A DNA stretch of 44,883 nucleotides, taken from sequence record ON210144.1; one strand, given 5' to 3'. Shown here piece by piece: positions 3,338 through 44,486 of the stretch. A model generated the notes under the pieces. That model had not been told where the DNA came from and ran no database searches. It was given only the letters and a program-made list of their open reading frames with translations. The translations under genes and the position numbers were made by a program. Numbering within the stretch: the stretch's first letter is position 1; each line of letters begins with the position of its first letter. Origin of the DNA: Escherichia phage EEc2.

Positions 3338-5965
3338 ATGCAAGACCTACACGCTATTCAACTTCAACTTGAAGAAGAAATGTTTAACGGCGGTATCCGT
3401 CGCTTTGAAGCGGACCAACAACGCCAGATTGCATCCGGTAATGAATCAGACACGGCATGGAATCGCCGCTTATTGTCCGAGTTAATCGCGCCAATGGCTG
3501 AAGGTATTCAGGCATACAAGGAAGAGTATGAAGGTAAAAGAGGCCGTGCACCGCGTGCATTAGCTTTCATTAACTGCGTAGAAAACGAAGTGGCAGCATA
3601 TATCACGATGAAAATCGTTATGGATATGCTGAACACGGATGTAACCTTGCAGGCTATAGCCATGAATGTAGCTGACCGCATTGAGGACCAAGTACGTTTT
3701 AGCAAGCTGGAAGGTCACGCCGCCAAATACTTTGAGAAAGTTAAGAAGTCACTTAAGGCAAGTAAGACTAAATCATATCGCCATGCGCACAACGTAGCGG
3801 TCGTGGCTGAGAAGTCAGTAGCTGACCGTGACGCTGATTTCTCTCGCTGGGAGGCGTGGCCTAAAGATACCTTGCTACAAATTGGTATGACCTTGCTAGA
3901 AATACTGGAAAATAGTGTATTCTTCAATGGTCAGCCTGTCTTTCTTCGCACCTTGCGCACTAATGGTGGCAAGCATGGCGTTTACTACTTACAGACTAGC
4001 GAACACGTGGGTGAATGGATAACTGCATTTAAAGAGCACGTAGCTCAGCTGAGTCCAGCCTATGCACCTTGCGTTATTCCTCCGCGTCCGTGGGTTTCTC
4101 CGTTTAATGGTGGCTTTCACACCGAGAAGGTGGCAAGTCGCATCCGTCTAGTAAAAGGTAACCGTGAGCACGTCCGTAAGCTGACTAAAAAGCAAATGCC
4201 AGCGGTTTATAAGGCTGTTAATGCATTGCAAGCCACTAAGTGGCAGGTTAACAAGGAAGTATTGCAGGTAGTAGAAGATGTTATTCGTCTAGACCTCGGT
4301 TATGGTGTACCTTCCTTTAAGCCGCTCATTGACCGCGAGAACAAACCAGCTAACCCTGTTCCTCTTGAGTTCCAACACCTGCGAGGCCGTGAACTGAAAG
4401 AGATGCTAACACCGGAGCAATGGCAGGCCTTCATCAACTGGAAGGGTGAATGTACTAAACTGTATACCGCTGAGACTAAGCGCGGCAGCAAGTCGGCGGC
4501 GACCGTCCGCATGGTAGGACAGGCCCGTAAATACAGCCAGTTTGACGCTATTTATTTTGTATATGCACTGGATAGCCGTTCACGCGTTTATGCGCAATCT
4601 AGCACGCTCTCGCCGCAATCAAACGACTTAGGCAAGGCATTGCTCCGTTTTACCGAAGGGCAGCGTCTTGATAGCGCTGAGGCGCTTAAGTGGTTTTTGG
4701 TGAACGGGGCGAATAACTGGGGTTGGGATAAGAAAACTTTTGACGTGCGCACCTCTAACGTGCTGGATGGCGAATTTCAAGACATGTGCCGCGACATTGC
4801 AGCCGATCCGCTGACCTTCACTCAATGGGTAAATGCTGATTCCCCTTACGGCTTCCTTGCATGGTGCTTTGAATATGCGCGTTATCTGGATGCACTGGAT
4901 GAAGGCACGCAAGACCAATTCATGACGCACCTACCCGTCCATCAAGACGGTAGTTGCTCTGGTATCCAGCACTATAGCGCGATGTTACGCGATGAAGTAG
5001 GTGCGAAAGCAGTAAACCTTAAGCCTTCTGACTTCCCTCAAGATATTTATGGCGCGGTTGCGCAGGTTGTTATCCAGAAGAATTACGCCTACATGAATGC
5101 AGACGATGCAGAGACTTTCACATCTGGAAGCGTCACACTTACAGGTGCAGAACTGCGTAGCATGGCTAGTGCGTGGGATATGATAGGAATAACTCGCGGA
5201 TTGACCAAAAAGCCCGTAATGACACTACCTTATGGCAGCACACGTCTAACCTGCCGTGAATCAGTGATTGATTATATCGTTGATTTGGAAGAAAAAGAGG
5301 CCCAACGAGCTATTGCGGAAGGGCGTACCGCCAATCCTGTACACCCTTTTGATAATGACCGTAAGGACAGCCTGACACCTAGCGCAGCTTATAACTATAT
5401 GACAGCTTTAATCTGGCCTTCTATTTCGGAAGTGGTTAAAGCTCCTATAGTGGCAATGAAAATGATTCGTCAGCTTGCCCGTTTCGCAGCTAAAAGGAAT
5501 GAAGGCTTAGAGTATACCTTGCCTACTGGCTTCATCTTGCAACAAAAGATTATGGCTACTGATATGCTCCGCGTATCCACTTGCCTGATGGGAGAAATCA
5601 AGATGAGTCTCCAGATTGAAACGGACGTAGTGGATGAAACGGCTATGATGGGCGCTGCTGCTCCTAACTTTGTGCATGGTCATGATGCCAGTCACCTTAT
5701 CTTAACAGTCTGCGACCTTGTTGATAAAGGGATTACATCTATCGCAGTCATTCATGATTCTTTCGGTACTCACGCAGGCCGTACAGCCGATCTTCGTGAT
5801 AGCTTAAGGGCAGAAATGGTGAAGATGTATCAAGGCCGTAATGCCCTGCAAAGCCTGTTAGATGAGCATGAAGAACGCTGGTTAGTAGACACCGGAATCC
5901 AAGTGCCAGAGCAAGGAGAGTTTGACCTTAACGAAATCTTAGTATCTGACTATTGCTTCGCATAA
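3338..5965 (+). CDS. Single-subunit DNA-directed RNA polymerase (T7 gene 1 type), 875 aa
   Basis: Motifs [13 protein letters not shown] and HDSFGT and a C-terminal ...CFA match the T7/SP6 RNAP family. TAGGAG SD upstream. Confidence 0.97.
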
Positions 5966-34600: not shown

Positions 34601-34999
34601 AAAGCCTATGTGAACTCTATTGGTCGAGAAGACCAAGATGAATATTTGGAAGAGAAGTTATCGCCTAAAGGGTTGGCCTTTGGTGCAATGGGTATGATGA
34701 GTACAACTGCTGTATTTAGTCTAGGTGGAGACTTCTTAGGTGGCCTAGGTGTTCTACCTTCTGAGTTAGTACAATCCCGTTATGAGGCTGGCTTTCAGAC
34801 TAAGGGTTTGATAGACCAAATACCACTAGTAGGTGTTGGTCAAGATGCATATCGTTTAGCAGATTCTATAACTAAATACGCAGAGGGCGATACAGAAGGT
34901 GTAGATGTGGCACGTAGGGCTTTACGCTTAGTGCCTCTAGCTAATGTAATAGGAATCCAGAACGCATTGCGTTATGGCTTAGATGAACTGGAGGATTAA
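31691..34999 (+). CDS. Large internal virion (core/ejection) protein, gp16-like, 1102 aa
   Basis: GGAGG SD; largest structural ORF, immediately before the tail-fibre adaptor. Confidence 0.7.
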   Translation: MEQDIKTNWAGYVQSTPEPFSIEAAPVSALTIRQRNELQEQVLEAKADADILGAVGAAFQNEWLAFGGKRWYDRATADFTPQPDFEIQPAQREALRFKYGTDMMQTITEGVRSEDELNFRIQNADEDLERNKRIAQAGWVGSVATIGAAVLDPVGWVASIPTGGAAKVGLVGRAVRGAIAAGVSNAAIESVLVQGDMTRDLDDIMVALGSGMAMGGVIGAVARGRATKLSEQGDDRAASIVRSADAGDRYVRAVADDSIGAMRVKGEEVLTEGAFDISSKGEDLLKTLQREGNAIDMTPRRWAGTLSALGTVVHSSQDASVRGLGARLFESPQGLGMQKASASLMQNTNLNRLKSADMNRFNDGFDLWLKENNINPVAGHTNSHYVQQYNEKVWEAVRIGMDESTPKSIRMAAEGQQAMYREALALRQRSGESGFEKVKADDKYMPDIFDSMKARRQFSMHDKEDIIELFSRAYQNGSRKVPKEVADDIARAQVNRVADATLTGQLSFEKAMSGQTKAEYEALMRKAGFSDEEIEKMVEALDNKETRDNISNRAKMSLGLDVTQEYNGIRMRDFMNTNVEELTDNYMKEAAGGAALARQGFSTYQAALNAIDLVERNARNAAKDTKAHAQFEAESAKIRQSEPDYKKAQEKIEELKKRLKLKEKDEAAGLAIDEEIRQMREGLRLIMGKSIDSNPQDLSTKMLRRGRDITGVLRLGQMGFAQLGELANFMGEFGIAATTMALGKQFRFTSKALRNGDGFFRDKNLAEVERMVGYIGEDNWLTTKGARPDEFGDVTTVRGMMAHFDQSMNSIRRAQTNLSLFRMAQGSLERMTNRQIALSFIDHLEGKKIIPQKKLEELGLTQEFMTNLQKHYDANSKGSGLLGFDTMPYAMGETLANAIRRKSGLIIQRNFIGDEGIWMNKALGKTFAQLKSFSLVSGEKQFGRGIRHDKIGLAKKTAYGFALGSIVYAAKAYVNSIGREDQDEYLEEKLSPKGLAFGAMGMMSTTAVFSLGGDFLGGLGVLPSELVQSRYEAGFQTKGLIDQIPLVGVGQDAYRLADSITKYAEGDTEGVDVARRALRLVPLANVIGIQNALRYGLDELED

Positions 35000-35961
35000 T
35001 GAGTTATACTTTCACAGAACATATAGCCAACGGTACGCAAGTAACCTATCCCTTTAGCTTTGCTGGTAGGGATAAAGGTTATCTTCGTGCCTCAGATGTG
35101 ATAGTGGAGTCTCTTCAAGGTAACACTTGGATTGAGGTTACATCTGGCTGGCAACTAACTGGCACGCACCAGATTACTTTTGATGTAGCACCAGTTGCAG
35201 GTTTGAAGTTCCGTATTAGAAGGGAAGTACAAAAGGAGTATCCATACGCTGAGTTTGACCGTGGTGTTACCTTGGATATGAAGTCTTTAAATGGTTCTTT
35301 CATTCATATACTGGAGATTACACAGGAGTTACTTGACGGGTTTTATCCAGAAGGATACTTCATTAAACAGAATGTAAGCTGGGGCGGCAATAAGATTACT
35401 GATTTGGCTGATGGCACAAATCCGGGAGATGCAGTAAATAAAGGGCAGCTTGATGCCATCGACAAGAAGCATACAGATTGGAACGCCAAACAGGACATTG
35501 AGATTGCTGGCCTTAAGGCTGGTATGACTTCTGGTATTGCGCACAGAACTGTTCCTTGGTACACGATAGCCCAAGGTGGTGAGATTTCCGTAAAACCACC
35601 TTATGAATTTCAAGATGCACTAGTTTTCCTTAATGGGGTGTTGCAGCACCAAATTGTAGGCGCATACTCTATAAGCAACAACACTATCACTTTCGCAGAG
35701 CCGCTTGTGGCTGGTACAGAGGTGTATGTGCTGATTGGTAGTCGTGTGGCTACATCTGAACCTAATATTCAGTTAGAGTTGAACTTTGACTTAGTAGAAG
35801 GCCAACAAGTAGTACAGATTGGCTCTGCATTTAAGTACATTGAGGTCTACCTTGATGGATTATTACAACCTAAACTTGCTTATCAGGTAGACGGTGACAT
35901 TGTTACTTTCTCAGAGGGAGTGCCAGAATGCCGGATGACTGCTAAGATTATCACAGCATAA
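34999..35961 (+). CDS. Tail-fibre adaptor protein (homolog of the T7 gp17 N-terminal domain), 320 aa
   Basis: Segment NKITDLADGTNPGDAVNKGQLDAI resembles the T7 gp17 N-terminal RRIVNLANAVDDRDAVPFGQLK motif; no receptor-binding C-terminal domain. Confidence 0.7.
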   Translation: MSYTFTEHIANGTQVTYPFSFAGRDKGYLRASDVIVESLQGNTWIEVTSGWQLTGTHQITFDVAPVAGLKFRIRREVQKEYPYAEFDRGVTLDMKSLNGSFIHILEITQELLDGFYPEGYFIKQNVSWGGNKITDLADGTNPGDAVNKGQLDAIDKKHTDWNAKQDIEIAGLKAGMTSGIAHRTVPWYTIAQGGEISVKPPYEFQDALVFLNGVLQHQIVGAYSISNNTITFAEPLVAGTEVYVLIGSRVATSEPNIQLELNFDLVEGQQVVQIGSAFKYIEVYLDGLLQPKLAYQVDGDIVTFSEGVPECRMTAKIITA

Positions 35962-38490: not shown

Positions 38491-38772
38491 ATGGCTAATA
38501 ATTATAGTGATCAACCACTAACAGGACGATATGATCGAAAGCAGGAGACGCCTGTAAGTGAAGCGTTAATGCTCCCTGTTGTTACAGAGGAGTCTATTAC
38601 GAAGAAATCCAATGTTATCAATGATGCAACCAAATCTGGCAAACAGAAAGCAGCAATGGTGTGTCGCCCTGTAGGTGGCACTCTTGAGATTGCCATTGCT
38701 ACTGGCAGCAAAGAGGATGCAGATTGGTTGTCTGTTAAAATGGATGGCGTTGGTCTTATTACACCGGCTTAA
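38491..38772 (+). CDS. Small protein, paralog A of a tandem family (93 aa)
   Basis: AAGGAG SD; shares ...INxxxxSGKQKxAMVxxxxxGxxxxIAIAxGSxxxDxW... with paralogs B and C. Confidence 0.6.
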   Translation: MANNYSDQPLTGRYDRKQETPVSEALMLPVVTEESITKKSNVINDATKSGKQKAAMVCRPVGGTLEIAIATGSKEDADWLSVKMDGVGLITPA

Positions 38773-38789
38773 TAAAAGGAGAAGATAAT

Positions 38790-39077
38790 ATGTCTAAGTA
38801 TGGCGATGCAGGTACTACTACTGGTCAGGCTTTTCGTGTAAAAGCAGTACAAACTATTGCAACTGCAATCCCTATGCCTATCGTAGCAGAAGCTGACCTT
38901 AAAAAGAAAGATCATCCTATTAATATTGAACACCTATCTGGTAAGCAGAAAGGTGCTATGGTGGTTGTAGATAAGGGAGATAATAGCCTTTATATTGCTA
39001 TTGCACGTGGTTCTGCACCAACTGACCAGTGGGATGTAACTACTATGGAAGCTGTACCTGTAACACCAGGAGCTTAA
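38790..39077 (+). CDS. Small protein, paralog B of a tandem family (95 aa)
   Basis: AAAAGGAGAAG SD; aligns with A and C across HLSGKQKGAMVVVDKGDNSLYIAIARGSAPTDQWD. Confidence 0.6.
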   Translation: MSKYGDAGTTTGQAFRVKAVQTIATAIPMPIVAEADLKKKDHPINIEHLSGKQKGAMVVVDKGDNSLYIAIARGSAPTDQWDVTTMEAVPVTPGA

Positions 39078-39078
39078 T

Positions 39079-39291
39079 ATGCTGGGAGTAACAGGACAAC
39101 GCAATAAGAATGTAGCCACCAAAGTAGTGGCTGATTTAGCTACTGCTGCTACTGTAGAGGAATTACAAGATCAACATAGCTCTATTAACCGTGCTGACCT
39201 TTCTGGTAAACAAGAAGGTTCCGCTGTTATTGTTAAGAAAGAAGATGGGAATTATTCTATCTTTTGTAGCAACAGGAAGCAAGCCGACTGA
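39079..39291 (+). CDS. Paralog C, N-terminal portion (70 aa), terminated by a frame change relative to A and B
   Basis: AGGAG SD; ...DLSGKQEGSAVIVKKEDGNYSIF then stop after 8 non-homologous codons; the homologous continuation is in the +1 frame. Confidence 0.5.
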   Translation: MLGVTGQRNKNVATKVVADLATAATVEELQDQHSSINRADLSGKQEGSAVIVKKEDGNYSIFCSNRKQAD

Positions 39292-39769
39292 TGTGTGGAA
39301 AGAGTTGTCTCCAACAATACCAGAGCAAGAGATGCCTGCTGAATACATTGATATGATTGATGTTCAAATTCATCAAGATTCTGCAAGCAACTTACGCATA
39401 GACTCTTCTCGCACTAGTTTAATACAAACACCAATGTGGGATACTGAAGGTGAGTTGTTATTCCGTAATACACTAAGTGCAACATGTTCTTGTACTATTC
39501 TTGTTGATGGTGCGTCTGGTGTTCGTCAGGATTTTACTTTTAAGATTAATGGACTTTTAGAGCAGGAAGAGCAGTATTATGATATTGACACACTTATGTG
39601 CTCTATTCACTCTGCAACAACAACTAATGGCCTTACCTTGTGTATGCCAGATGCTAAAAGTGCAAAGACTAATAAAGTGGTAGTTAAGATCGACACTATG
39701 CAGTCATTAGCTATGAGCTTTGATCTTAACTTCCTTGTAGAATGGACGTCACCAACGAGGTTACTATAA
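39245..39769 (+). CDS. Paralog C, C-terminal portion in the +1 frame (about 174 aa from the first ATG)
   Basis: +1-frame ORF whose beginning (...SFVATGSKPTDVWKEL) continues the paralog alignment; internal ATG at 39245 has only a weak purine-rich SD. Confidence 0.4.
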   Translation: MGIILSFVATGSKPTDVWKELSPTIPEQEMPAEYIDMIDVQIHQDSASNLRIDSSRTSLIQTPMWDTEGELLFRNTLSATCSCTILVDGASGVRQDFTFKINGLLEQEEQYYDIDTLMCSIHSATTTNGLTLCMPDAKSAKTNKVVVKIDTMQSLAMSFDLNFLVEWTSPTRLL

Positions 39770-40687: not shown

Positions 40688-40708
40688 ATTTACTGGACAC
40701 TATAGAAG
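40688..40708 (+). promoter_or_regulatory. Phage promoter P11 (ATTTACTGGACACTATAGAAG), tailspike promoter
   Basis: Exact consensus; +1 G at 40705; 82 nt upstream of the tailspike 1 ATG. Confidence 0.85.
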
Positions 40709-40789
40709 AGGTAAGATAGCGCCGTTCTTTTGAGCGGCCTATTACTAGCCAATCTTCATAGGGAGGGTTGGAAAGTAATAGGAGATAGC

Positions 40790-42688
40790 ATGGCTAAATT
40801 AACCAAACCTAATACTGAAGGAATCTTGCATAAAGGGCAATCTTTGTATGAGTACCTTGATGCGAGAGTTTTAACATCAAAGCCGTTTGGTGCTGTAGGT
40901 GACGCCACTACTGATGATACTGAGGTTATAGCTGCTTCATTAAACTCTCAGAAAGCTGTCACAGTCTCAGACGGTGTATTCTCTAGCTCTGGTATTAATA
41001 GTAATTACTGTAACTTAGACGGCAGGGGTAGTGGCGTGCTAAGTCACCGTTCAAGTACAGGTAACTACTTAGTATTTAACAATCTACGTGCAGGTCGCTT
41101 AAGTAATATTACGGTAGAAAGTAATAAGGCGACTGATACAACTCAGGGACAGCAGGTATCCCTTGCTGGTGGAAGTGATGTTACTGTAAGTGACGTTAAC
41201 TTCTCAAACGTTAAAGGTACTGGTTTCAGTTTAATCGCATACCCTAATGATGCGCCACCGGATGGACTTATGATTAAAGGCATTCGAGGTAGCTATTCCG
41301 GCTATGCTACTAATAAGGCAGCCGGATGCGTACTTGCTGACTCCTCAGTTAACTCCCTCATAGATAACGTCATTGCTAAGAACTACCCTCAGTTCGGAGC
41401 AGTAGAGTTGAAAGGTACAGCCAGTTACAACATAGTCAGTAATGTTATAGGGGCAGATTGCCAGCATGTAACTTACAACGGCACTGAAGGGCCAATAGCT
41501 CCCTCTAATAACCTTATCAATGGGGTAGTGGCTAATAATCCTAAGTATGCAGCGGTTGTTGCAGGCAAAGGTAGTACGAACTTAATATCAGATGTGCTCG
41601 TAGATTACTCAACCTCTGATGCTAGGCAGGCTCATGGTGTTACAGTAGAGGGTTCTGATAACGTCATAAATAATGTGCTTATGTCAGGATGTGATGGTAC
41701 TAACTCTTTAGGACAAAGTCAGACTGCTACAATTGCGCGCTTTAGAGGTACAGCTAATAACAACTATGCGTCTGTATTTCCTAGCTACAGTGCTACAGGT
41801 GTTATTACTTTCGAATCAGGCTCTACCCGTAACTTCGTAGAGGTAAAGCACCCTGGCAGGAGAAACGACCTTCTCAGTTCTGCTAGTACTATTGACGGTG
41901 CAGCTACTATTGACGGCACTAGTAATAGTAACGTAGTGCACGCACCTGCCTTAGGGCAGTACATAGGTAGTATGTCAGGCAGGTTCGAATGGCGGATTAA
42001 GTCCATGTCACTCCCTTCAGGCGTTCTTACTTCTGCCGATAAGTACAGAATGCTTGGAGATGGTGCTGTGTCATTAGCTGTAGGTGGGGGCACTTCTTCT
42101 CAAATTCGCCTATTTACTTCTGATGGTACTTCTCGTACAGTGTCCCTCACCAACGGTAACGTGCGTCTTTCTACCAGTAGCACAGGCTTTTTGCAGTTAG
42201 GTGCTGATGCAATGACCCCAGACAGTACTGGTACATACGCATTAGGTTCCGCCAGCCGAGCATGGTCTGGCGGTTTTACTCAAGCAGCATTCACTGTTAC
42301 CTCAGATGCTCGGTGTAAAACAGAACCTCTTACTATCTCAGATGCCTTACTGGATGCTTGGTCTGAAGTTGACTTTGTGCAGTTTCAGTATTTGGATCGT
42401 GTTGAGGAGAAGGGTGCAGACTCAGCTAGATGGCACTTCGGTATCATCGCTCAGCGAGCTAAGGAGGCTTTCGAACGTCACGGTATAGATGCACATCGCT
42501 ATGGCTTCTTGTGCTTCGACAGTTGGGATGATGTATACGAGGAAGATGCCAATGGCTCTCGTAAACTGATTACACCAGCAGGTTCCCGCTACGGTATTCG
42601 TTACGAGGAAGTACTGATATTAGAGGCTGCGTTGATGCGGAGGACTATTAAGCGTATGCAGGAAGCACTAGCTTCCCTGCCTAAGTAA
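40790..42688 (+). CDS. Tailspike 1: beta-helix polysaccharide depolymerase with C-terminal intramolecular-chaperone autoprotease domain, 632 aa
   Basis: ATG 40790 with GGAG upstream (track start 40730 is TTG). N-terminal FGAVGDATTDDTEVI pectate-lyase-like motif; C-terminal 128 aa starting SDARCK match the self-cleaving chaperone domain of endosialidases and T5 L-shaped fibre. Confidence 0.85.
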   Translation: MAKLTKPNTEGILHKGQSLYEYLDARVLTSKPFGAVGDATTDDTEVIAASLNSQKAVTVSDGVFSSSGINSNYCNLDGRGSGVLSHRSSTGNYLVFNNLRAGRLSNITVESNKATDTTQGQQVSLAGGSDVTVSDVNFSNVKGTGFSLIAYPNDAPPDGLMIKGIRGSYSGYATNKAAGCVLADSSVNSLIDNVIAKNYPQFGAVELKGTASYNIVSNVIGADCQHVTYNGTEGPIAPSNNLINGVVANNPKYAAVVAGKGSTNLISDVLVDYSTSDARQAHGVTVEGSDNVINNVLMSGCDGTNSLGQSQTATIARFRGTANNNYASVFPSYSATGVITFESGSTRNFVEVKHPGRRNDLLSSASTIDGAATIDGTSNSNVVHAPALGQYIGSMSGRFEWRIKSMSLPSGVLTSADKYRMLGDGAVSLAVGGGTSSQIRLFTSDGTSRTVSLTNGNVRLSTSSTGFLQLGADAMTPDSTGTYALGSASRAWSGGFTQAAFTVTSDARCKTEPLTISDALLDAWSEVDFVQFQYLDRVEEKGADSARWHFGIIAQRAKEAFERHGIDAHRYGFLCFDSWDDVYEEDANGSRKLITPAGSRYGIRYEEVLILEAALMRRTIKRMQEALASLPK

Positions 42689-42695
42689 GCAACAG

Positions 42696-42717
42696 GCAGT
42701 GCGTAAGCACTGCTTTT
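42696..42717 (+). terminator. Short hairpin plus T-run between the two tailspike genes (weak terminator or attenuator)
   Basis: Perfect 7-bp stem GCAGTGC-GTAA-GCACTGC followed by TTTT, 8 nt after the tailspike 1 stop. Confidence 0.5.
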
Positions 42718-42773: not shown

Positions 42774-44486
42774 ATGCTTCAAAGATTAAGTGCTTACTTG
42801 GTGAAGTACAAGAGTAAACTAACAGGTACTATTGAGCGCCTGCTATCTGATAAACTATCGGATACAATAGATGTTGCGGATTTTGGAGTTACTCCATCTT
42901 CCAATGACAACAGGCAAGCACTTCAAGCTGCGTTCAATGCAGTCAGAGTGTTAGGCGGTGGCACTGTATTAGTCACTAAAGCTGGAAAATACAAACTCAG
43001 TGGTACTGTTGAGATATTTGCTAATACACACTTCAAGGTGGCTAAAGGTGTAACATTTGTACGTGACTACGAAACAGGAGATACGCTATTCAGATTATCA
43101 CAAGGGCAAGCTAGTAATGTAACAGTCAGTGGAGGTATCTATGAAGGCAATGGTCACACTAAGGGAGATACACCTTTTGTAGTATTTGCATCTACTAGTA
43201 ATAATGATTTGAAGTTTGAAGGCATAACAGTTAACAATGTAGTGGACTACCACGCCATAGATTTAGCAGATTGGAACAACGTAGTTATTCGTGATTGTAA
43301 ATTCCTAGGTTTTAAGAATACAGGCAGTCGTAACTTCTCAGAGGCTATACAGTTAGACCCAGGTCTTATTACAGTTGGTCACTATGTACAGTCAAGTGGT
43401 ATGCTGGTGGAGAATTGCTATGCTGGTCCAAACACAGAATCAGGGTTTGGAGGTTATGGTGCACTAATTGGAAATCACGCCTCAGCTTACGGTGTACAGG
43501 ACAACAATATCCGTATCTTGAATTGCACTACAGATGGTGCTCTCTTTGCAGGTGTACGTGTATTTAACTGGAAAAACTGGACAGTGCGTGGTTGCACATT
43601 TAGGAACTCTAATGCAAGAGGTGTCCATGTTACACCTGTCTCATCTCAGACTAAACCGCAGGGTACTCGACAAGGTAGTATTGTAGATTGCACTTTTGAT
43701 GGCGTAAGGACACCAGTGCTAATTGCTGCACCATCTTGGCCTTTTACCGATATTAGTGACATTTGGCATGACCATATTGAAATTTCTAATAATACTATGA
43801 TCCTCACAGAGGATGTATCCTATGGTGTAGATGCAAGGTGGTGTAAGAATTTAATTGTAAAAGGTAATACAGGCTCTGGTGGCTTAGGGTTAATCGGTTT
43901 ACGCTTTGGGACAAAATACCACATCGAAGGTAATACTTGGGAAAACGGAAGAGGTAGTGGGATTTGGTTAGGTGAGTCTGATGCTACTACATTCATTGGT
44001 ACTGGTTTATCAGGAGAAGGTATACTTAGTCGTAATATCTTCTCTAAATTAGGGCAATATGGTATTCATGTAAACTGCAAGGCTAGCTGTCTAGTGATTA
44101 AAGCCAATAATATGAAGGAAGTATCTACAGCTGAAGCAGGTAGGCACTTCATTAGTATAGACACAGGGGCTAACAACATCCTAGTAGAAGGTAATATTGG
44201 AGTAGACGGAGAAAGCCCTAACAAGCCAAGCCTTGGTATTCGTGTTACTTCTTCTTGTTCCAATATTAAACTCATTGGCAATGATTGCTATGGCACACAG
44301 GCGCCTCAGAATAACCAAGGAGTTGGTTCTAGTACGGTGATTGTTTATGGGCTAAATGGCAACCCTACAACTTTAGGCGTAGGTGCACCTGTAGGCTCTT
44401 TAGCAACTGATATCAATGGTTCTGGTGGTAGTACATTGTACGTTAAAGAATCTGGTACATCTGCTCAAGGTTGGGTTGCAAAGTAG
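42774..44486 (+). CDS. Tailspike 2: second beta-helix depolymerase-like protein, 570 aa
   Basis: Strong SD GAGGAGG; N-terminal DTIDVADFGVTPSSNDNRQALQAAFNA...GGGTVLV motif; Gly/Asn/Thr-rich repeats consistent with parallel beta-helix; no T7 gp17 N-terminal domain. Confidence 0.8.
   Translation: MLQRLSAYLVKYKSKLTGTIERLLSDKLSDTIDVADFGVTPSSNDNRQALQAAFNAVRVLGGGTVLVTKAGKYKLSGTVEIFANTHFKVAKGVTFVRDYETGDTLFRLSQGQASNVTVSGGIYEGNGHTKGDTPFVVFASTSNNDLKFEGITVNNVVDYHAIDLADWNNVVIRDCKFLGFKNTGSRNFSEAIQLDPGLITVGHYVQSSGMLVENCYAGPNTESGFGGYGALIGNHASAYGVQDNNIRILNCTTDGALFAGVRVFNWKNWTVRGCTFRNSNARGVHVTPVSSQTKPQGTRQGSIVDCTFDGVRTPVLIAAPSWPFTDISDIWHDHIEISNNTMILTEDVSYGVDARWCKNLIVKGNTGSGGLGLIGLRFGTKYHIEGNTWENGRGSGIWLGESDATTFIGTGLSGEGILSRNIFSKLGQYGIHVNCKASCLVIKANNMKEVSTAEAGRHFISIDTGANNILVEGNIGVDGESPNKPSLGIRVTSSCSNIKLIGNDCYGTQAPQNNQGVGSSTVIVYGLNGNPTTLGVGAPVGSLATDINGSGGSTLYVKESGTSAQGWVAK

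Follow-up and report, generated by a model that had tools for sequence, protein, structure and literature searches.

The gene at positions 40,790 to 42,688 very probably codes for a tailspike, the K5-capsule lyase of a K1-5-like podophage (Vectrevirus), and the last 128 residues of the gene product form a C-terminal intramolecular chaperone domain (CIMCD) of the peptidase S74 type that is predicted to cleave itself off. The window, to which all positions given here refer, is the whole stretch of DNA that was analysed, 44,883 nucleotides from Escherichia phage EEc2 (sequence record ON210144.1). Within the analysis this reading is carried by the sequence, the membership of the domain in the S74 family, the conserved catalytic dyad, the identity to phage K1-5 gp46, and calculated masses that agree with published values. 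The dependence of folding on trimer formation, the autocatalysis, the exact bond that would be cut and the lack of the domain in EEc2 virions are predicted from homologues and from the literature. The features of the tailspike region are shown in Table 1.

Table 1. Positions of tailspike 1, its predicted processing site and associated features in the EEc2 window
Feature	Position	Strand	Evidence
Tail adaptor protein (K1-5 gp37-like, 320 aa)	34999..35961	+	PHROG 2710 'tail fiber protein', E = 2e-148
Presumed promoter of SP6/K1-5 type for a phage RNA polymerase, just 5' of tailspike 1	40688..40710	+	Exact consensus copy ATTTACTGGACACTATAGAAGAG
Tailspike 1 gene, K5 capsule lyase by sequence (K1-5 gp46 / KflA orthologue), 632 aa + stop	40790..42688	+	Ribosome-binding site, gp46 identity, PHROG 14895, PDB 2x3h
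N-terminal heptapeptide MAKLTKP, reported tail-adaptor docking peptide	40790..40810	+	Sequence read directly; role from literature
Last 20 residues of the predicted mature spike (LGSASRAWSGGFTQAAFTVT), stalk motif before the cleavage site, ending in Thr504	42242..42301	+	Aligns with the LGxxSxR...TS motif of 12 other phage proteins
Predicted scissile bond Thr504-Ser505; Ser505 codon TCA 42302-42304	42299..42304	+	Ser505 invariance, PF13884 position 1, 3gud/3gw6 alignment
C-terminal intramolecular chaperone domain (CIMCD, peptidase S74), residues 505-632, 14.7 kDa	42302..42685	+	PF13884, PDB matches, K1-5 identity
Lys510 codon AAA, predicted general base of the Ser-Lys dyad	42317..42319	+	Same residue in all 13 aligned sequences; counterpart of endoNF K916 and T5 K1269
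Hairpin then U-run separating the spike genes, 6 nt past the tailspike 1 stop	42694..42717	+	9-bp stem, -15.4 kcal/mol, z = -3.2
Second spike, 570 aa, right-handed beta-helix protein	42774..44486		

Tailspike 1 gene

The mechanical list of open reading frames gives the gene as 40730..42688, with a TTG start and a product of 652 aa. The true start is almost certainly the ATG at 40790, which gives 632 aa and makes the chaperone serine Ser505, because an AGGAGA ribosome-binding site lies at 40779-40784 (5 nt 5' of the ATG), a copy of the promoter stands upstream, the N-terminus reads MAKLTKP, and the gene is annotated at 1899 nt in the records of phages K1-5 and LL11, equal in length to the tailspike 1 gene. 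The TTG start was ruled out by the same ribosome-binding site, by the position of the promoter upstream of the TTG codon, and by the N-terminal heptapeptide, which is exactly that of K1-5 gp46 and KflA. A 60-aa open reading frame in another frame within the domain (42306..42488) was also rejected, being a purely mechanical call without support, and the conservation of this region is explained by the K5 lyase frame.

Tailspike 1 is identical to phage K1-5 gp46 ("K5 lyase", AAG59821) at 625 of 632 residues (98.9%). The seven differences (V36A, A222T, N244K, V247M, S310G, R319I and I439V, given as window to K1-5) lie between residues 36 and 439 and are all located in the part corresponding to the mature protein, and residues 505-632 are 100% identical to the gp46 C-terminus, with one synonymous nucleotide difference in 384 nt. 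PHROG 14895 matches tailspike 1 over its full length (positions 1-632 of 632), and the crystallised K5 lyase KflA (PDB 2x3h) aligns to residues 1-505 with a score of 1062 bits, its chain ending at Ser505. Judged from these matches, tailspike 1 is the K5 lyase itself, beyond mere resemblance, and the 98.9% identity, taken by itself, predicts heparosan (K5 polysaccharide) lyase activity.

C-terminal chaperone domain

Translation of 42302-42685 on the plus strand gives 128 codons, SDARCKTEPLTISDALLDAW...RMQEALASLPK, followed by TAA at 42686-42688, and the domain runs to this stop codon at the extreme C-terminus of tailspike 1. The first-pass annotation had named these 128 residues, with the codon of a conserved serine at 42302, as the chaperone domain known from endosialidases, K5 lyase and the T5 L-shaped fibre. 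Both the extent of the translation and the serine codon are exactly as it gave them, and the assignment to the chaperone-of-endosialidase family is borne out by alignment with the solved domains of endosialidase NF (endoNF), the GA-1 neck appendage and the T5 L-shaped fibre. Its comparison with K5 lyase holds in a stronger form, since the protein, at 98.9% identity to K1-5 gp46 and with an identical chaperone domain, is on this evidence the K5 lyase and not only a relative of it.

The Pfam profile PF13884 (Peptidase_S74, "Chaperone of endosialidase"), which has a curated gathering score (cut-off) of 22 bits, matched the 128-aa stretch with E = 9e-16 and 58.3 bits and the whole protein with 54.4 bits. 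Residues 505-565 are covered by positions 1-57 of the 58 in the profile, so that the match starts exactly at the serine named by the first-pass annotation, position 1 being Ser505. Matches in the PDB were the released chaperone domain of the Bacillus phage GA-1 neck appendage (3gud, E = 9e-24), a phage tail fibre (7y5s, E = 3e-20), the stalk and chaperone of endosialidase NF as an S911A mutant (3gw6, E = 4e-20), a tail spike protein (6eu4, E = 2e-15) and the T5 L-shaped fibre (4uw8, E = 3e-10). By tblastn, 607 records of the phage collection contain a homologue of the domain, on features whose annotations read tail spike, tail fibre, endosialidase, lyase or neck appendage. The part of tailspike 1 between about residues 386 and 630 is shared with other PHROGs of spikes and fibres. 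The same module also occurs in eukaryotic MyRF transcription factors. No second copy of the domain was found within the window by tblastn and Pfam, the second spike (tailspike 2) included. The fold typical of the family consists of an N-terminal helical/beta part, a long hairpin 'tentacle' and a C-terminal helix that builds a trimeric coiled coil. When residues 475-632 were modelled with AlphaFold2 from the single sequence, the mean pLDDT was 49.7, too poor to bear out this fold or to support a fold search, and this same low-confidence model places a long helix at fragment positions 131-154 (protein residues 605-628), where the coiled coil is expected. Leaving aside the fold and the sensor arginine of the stalk, every defining feature of the S74 chaperone domain that can be tested on the sequence was found.

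Conservation was assessed by aligning tailspike 1 with the C-terminal regions of proteins from 12 other phages (13 sequences), namely a Kagunavirus, GA-1, two Schitoviridae endosialidases, a Przondovirus, K1E gp47, a K1F-like Kayfunavirus, the K64-1 S2-3 lyase, a Vibrio phage, a T5-like Tequintavirus, a Webervirus and a cyanopodovirus. Together the 13 proteins span the Autographiviridae, Schitoviridae, Drexlerviridae, Demerecviridae and Salasmaviridae, a jumbo Klebsiella phage, a Vibrio phage and a cyanophage. Eight columns are invariant across this diverse set (Gly486, Ser505, Lys510, His549, Gly551, Gln555, Gly565 and Arg604), and they include both the serine that had been claimed to be conserved and its partner Lys510, which sits five residues past it within SDARCK. 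Ser505 aligns with residue 1 of 3gud, the released GA-1 domain, and with the S911A position of endoNF in 3gw6, and is preceded by Thr504 as the corresponding serines are by T910 in endoNF and T1263 in T5. Ser505 and Lys510 are the counterparts of the Ser-Lys dyad described in endoNF (S911/K916), in T5 (S1264/K1269) and in the eukaryotic proteins MyRF and MrfA, in which mutation of either residue blocks cleavage (PMC4690869; PMC8326128; PMC3828593).

The stalk immediately upstream reads LGSASRAW in K5-lyase-type spikes and LGxxSxR in most others. Correct folding is sensed in endoNF (R897) and in T5 (R1250) by an arginine in the stalk of the neighbouring subunit, and in the ungapped alignment Arg490 of tailspike 1 stands one column before this consensus arginine. 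Compared with a 94.5%-identical copy of the domain from a Kayfunavirus, 11 codon changes are synonymous and 7 non-synonymous, a small sample that is consistent with purifying selection; none of these changes falls at an invariant residue and three are in the last four residues.

Predicted self-cleavage and the mature spike

The precursor has a calculated mass of 66.79 kDa; residues 1-504 come to 52.06 kDa (52,061 Da) and residues 505-632 to 14.74 kDa. K1-5 ORF46 is entered in a review table as "67 / mature form 52 / trimer" (PMC5380687), and a recombinant K5 depolymerase made in E. coli ran at 52 kDa "after proteolysis" (PMC5696595). The calculated 66.8 and 52.1 kDa agree with these published values, and the predicted shortening of the mature spike by about 128 aa, already put forward in the first-pass annotation, therefore reproduces the experimental sizes of a protein with an identical chaperone domain. 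For phage EEc2 itself, cleavage would follow by transfer from the identical K1-5 domain and from the homologues.

The mechanism by homology comprises nucleation by the chaperone, Ser-Lys autocleavage and a kinetically trapped mature trimer (PMC6872550; PMC8326128; PMC3828593). In tailspike 1, the chaperone domains of the three subunits in a nascent trimer would associate and template the triple-beta-helix stalk just upstream, and the correctly folded stalk would position the catalytic residues. Lys510 would then deprotonate Ser505, which would attack the adjacent Thr504-Ser505 peptide bond. The 14.7 kDa chaperone would leave, and a kinetically stable 52.1 kDa subunit (residues 1-504) would stay in the trimer. 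The mature trimer would dock on the tail adaptor via the N-terminal MAKLTKP, a peptide that serves as the docking peptide for the tail adaptor protein in K1-5 according to the part of PMC6872550 that cites Leiman et al. 2007.

In the homologues the cut lies N-terminal to the serine: a passage in PMC3828593 places it immediately N-terminal to S911 in endoNF, and in the T5 fibre the Thr1263-Ser1264 bond is cut and the mature fibre has no density for the serine (PMC4690869). From these precedents, the serine is expected to leave with the chaperone, so that the mature spike is predicted to consist of residues 1-504 and the released domain of the 128 residues 505-632. The position of the cut carries an uncertainty of one residue, because Ser505 is part of the 2x3h chain and the model of the phi29 appendage keeps the serine.

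With the same domain and the same autocatalysis, a cut C-terminal of Ser505 would give a mature spike of residues 1-505 (52,148 Da) and a freed fragment of 127 aa, as might be read from Ser505 being the last residue of the K5 lyase chain in 2x3h. The abstract of Schwarzer 2007 is said to describe the domain as cleaved off 'after' the conserved serine. We nevertheless regard this placement as unlikely, given the sites described above for endoNF and T5 and the serine that forms the first residue of the released GA-1 domain in 3gud, and where the 2x3h chain ends may be a matter of construct design alone. The Thr504-Ser505 bond is retained here as the predicted site. It is very improbable that the freed 14.7 kDa fragment has a second role in the infected cell after cleavage and that the one-residue shift of Arg490 signals a coupling of folding to cleavage different from that of endoNF.

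A tailspike that kept the domain, with the full-length 67 kDa protein in the virion and the C-terminus serving as a distal receptor-binding or stabilising knob, would fit PDB entry 9vvr, which lists an 843-aa K5-lyase-type spike including the domain, but the deposited sequence is silent on which residues are in the particle, and the 100% identical domain of K1-5 gp46, a protein with a reported 52 kDa mature form, together with the intact catalytic and invariant residues of the 13-sequence alignment, leaves retention only a slight chance. Least probable of all is removal of the C-terminal piece in trans by a host or phage protease, for although recombinant processing was seen in E. coli, a protease-containing host (PMC5696595), Ser-to-Ala or Lys-to-Ala changes in the domain abolish cleavage of homologues (T5 S1264A, PMC4690869; MyRF S587A/K592A, PMC8326128; MrfA S767A/K772A, PMC3828593), and the fact that Bacillus phages and eukaryotic MyRF proteins show the same processing argues against a dedicated trans protease.

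With self-cleavage of the domain as the preferred reading, the feature is already characterised, a textbook self-cleaving chaperone present as a copy identical to that of K1-5, and involves no new biology. For annotation, the functional virion protein is predicted to be of about 504 aa (52 kDa) and not the 632-aa product of the open reading frame, and a recombinant K5 depolymerase made from EEc2 would have to keep the C-terminal 128 residues in order to fold.

Genomic setting and comparison with known systems

The motif ATTTACTGGACACTATAGAAGAG, which we take to be an SP6-type phage promoter, occurs eight times at three or fewer mismatches, always on the plus strand, against 0 occurrences expected by chance. 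The hairpin between the two spike genes was called by a simple consensus scan only on the minus strand, and the record of phage LL11 has a terminator annotated at the equivalent position; the hairpin is likely to be a transcription terminator or attenuator between the spike genes. The PHROG match of the tail adaptor covers only the N-terminal 322 of the 781 profile positions. Both tailspikes are expected to dock on this adaptor, its role being taken from PMC6872550. The spike region is 99% identical to that of Escherichia phage 6948, and by its sequence the window belongs to a K1-5-like Vectrevirus (Autographiviridae, Molineuxvirinae), grouped with K1-5, K1E and LL11.

Among known systems, K1-5 gp46 (AAG59821) and coliphage K5A KflA (2x3h) share with tailspike 1 the length of 632 aa, the MAKLTKP peptide, the position after the lysis genes and the 67 to 52 kDa relationship. 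The neighbouring second spike of K1-5 is the K1 endosialidase gp47, whereas EEc2 has the 570-aa beta-helix protein in this place. Both gp46 and gp47 of K1-5 carry a self-cleaving domain (on the basis of K1E gp47), whereas the EEc2 window has only one self-cleaving spike. The Kayfunavirus K5-lyase-type tailspike of 843 aa (9vvr; MZ234022 CDS 3368..5899) aligns through its residues 242-842 with residues 31-631 of tailspike 1 at very high identity, and its chaperone domain is the 94.5%-identical copy described above, but a T7 gp17-type N-terminal anchor of about 240 aa replaces the short adaptor-docking peptide, and the lyase and chaperone module has thus moved between two attachment architectures.

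Endosialidase NF of phage K1F (3gw6), the type example of peptidase family S74, has S911, K916 and T910 aligned with Ser505, Lys510 and Thr504, and likewise carries the domain C-terminal to a triple-beta-helix stalk. It differs in having only about 35% identity, an insertion of about 30 residues in the hairpin region of its domain, a sialidase and not a lyase as the upstream enzyme, and a sensor arginine offset by one residue in the alignment. K5 lyases apart, the GA-1 gp12 neck appendage (3gud) gave the best match in the structural database, with 43% identity over 119 residues, and its crystallised released fragment starts at the serine aligned with Ser505; however, GA-1 is a phi29-like phage of a Gram-positive host, and the mature gp12 is a neck appendage and not a capsule depolymerase. 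The T5 L-shaped fibre pb1 (4uw8) has the Ser1264/Lys1269 dyad and a Thr-Ser bond that is cut once the trimer has folded, but it is distant (about 28-30% identity), and the part that its domain chaperones is a receptor-binding 'bullet' domain without enzymatic function, in the fibre of a siphovirus.

Putative promoters and small tandem ORFs

The consensus ATTTACTGGACACTATAGAAGAG, which we take to be a phage promoter of the SP6/K1-5 type, occurs eight times in the window at up to three mismatches (23 nt each), where none is expected by chance. Three paralogous small ORFs lie in tandem, comprising proteins of 93 aa and 95 aa and the N-terminus of a 229-aa gene, and share the motif SGKQ(K/E)G.A(M)V...IA.GS...D.W. 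The related phages K1-5 and LL11 carry only two such paralogues, gp41 and gp42, and the third, longer copy in the window corresponds to an insertion of ~650 bp relative to K1-5. These small paralogues are labelled ‘acetyl-CoA acetyltransferase’ in public records, which on proteins of ~95 aa looks like a propagated misannotation. The 229-aa ORF is unbroken in MZ234019 (CDS 38554..39243) and MK373771 (CDS 40860..41549), whereas in the window it is broken into two pieces by one additional T in a T-run (TCTTTTG, compared with TCTTTG in relatives). The additional T is either a true frameshift mutation or an error made in sequencing the homopolymer.

Window coordinates of the features discussed
Feature	Position	Strand	Basis or remark
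Putative phage promoter copies, ATTTACTGGACACTATAGAAGAG (all eight)	6057, 8575, 13125, 13588, 14819, 23481, 38345, 40688	+	Consensus scan
Tandem paralogous ORFs	38491-39291
Split-ORF locus	39079-39769
70-aa piece of split ORF	39079..39291		One frame
192-aa piece of split ORF	39191..39769		Different frame from 70-aa piece
Extra T in T-run	about 39262-39265
Stalk Arg490 codon, tailspike 1	42257-42259		Alignment
Hairpin between tailspike genes	42694-42717		9-bp stem, short U-run; z = -3.2
Tailspike 2, right-handed beta-helix protein, 570 aa	42774-44486		Pfam Beta_helix, NosD; PHROG 2234

The second tailspike

The position held in K1-5 by the K1 endosialidase gp47 is occupied in the window by the beta-helix protein tailspike 2, of which the sole PDB relative is a weak one (3zpp, E = 2e-9). 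Its N-terminus, MLQRLSAYLVK, is similar to MIQRLGSSLVK, the adaptor-docking undecapeptide of K1-5 (PMC6872550), and no S74 chaperone domain was found in it by Pfam profile search. The hairpin that precedes it was reported by the consensus scan on the minus strand only, and may attenuate read-through into the tailspike 2 gene.

The lyase and chaperone module in other phages

In tailspike 1, the K5 capsule lyase, the stalk Arg of the LGxxSxR motif is Arg490. Alignment with endosialidases, the GA-1 appendage and T5-like fibres shows it shifted by one residue towards the N-terminus, and the K5-lyase-type spike of Kagunavirus fFiEco02 has the same shift. T7-like Kayfunavirus phages also carry the lyase and chaperone module (residues 31-631 of tailspike 1), within a spike of 843 aa (MZ234022, locus L017 456-2987; PDB 9vvr) in which it is fused to an N-terminal anchor of ~240 aa of the T7 gp17 type. 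The enzyme and chaperone cassette has thus been swapped between adaptor-docking and direct-anchor architectures.
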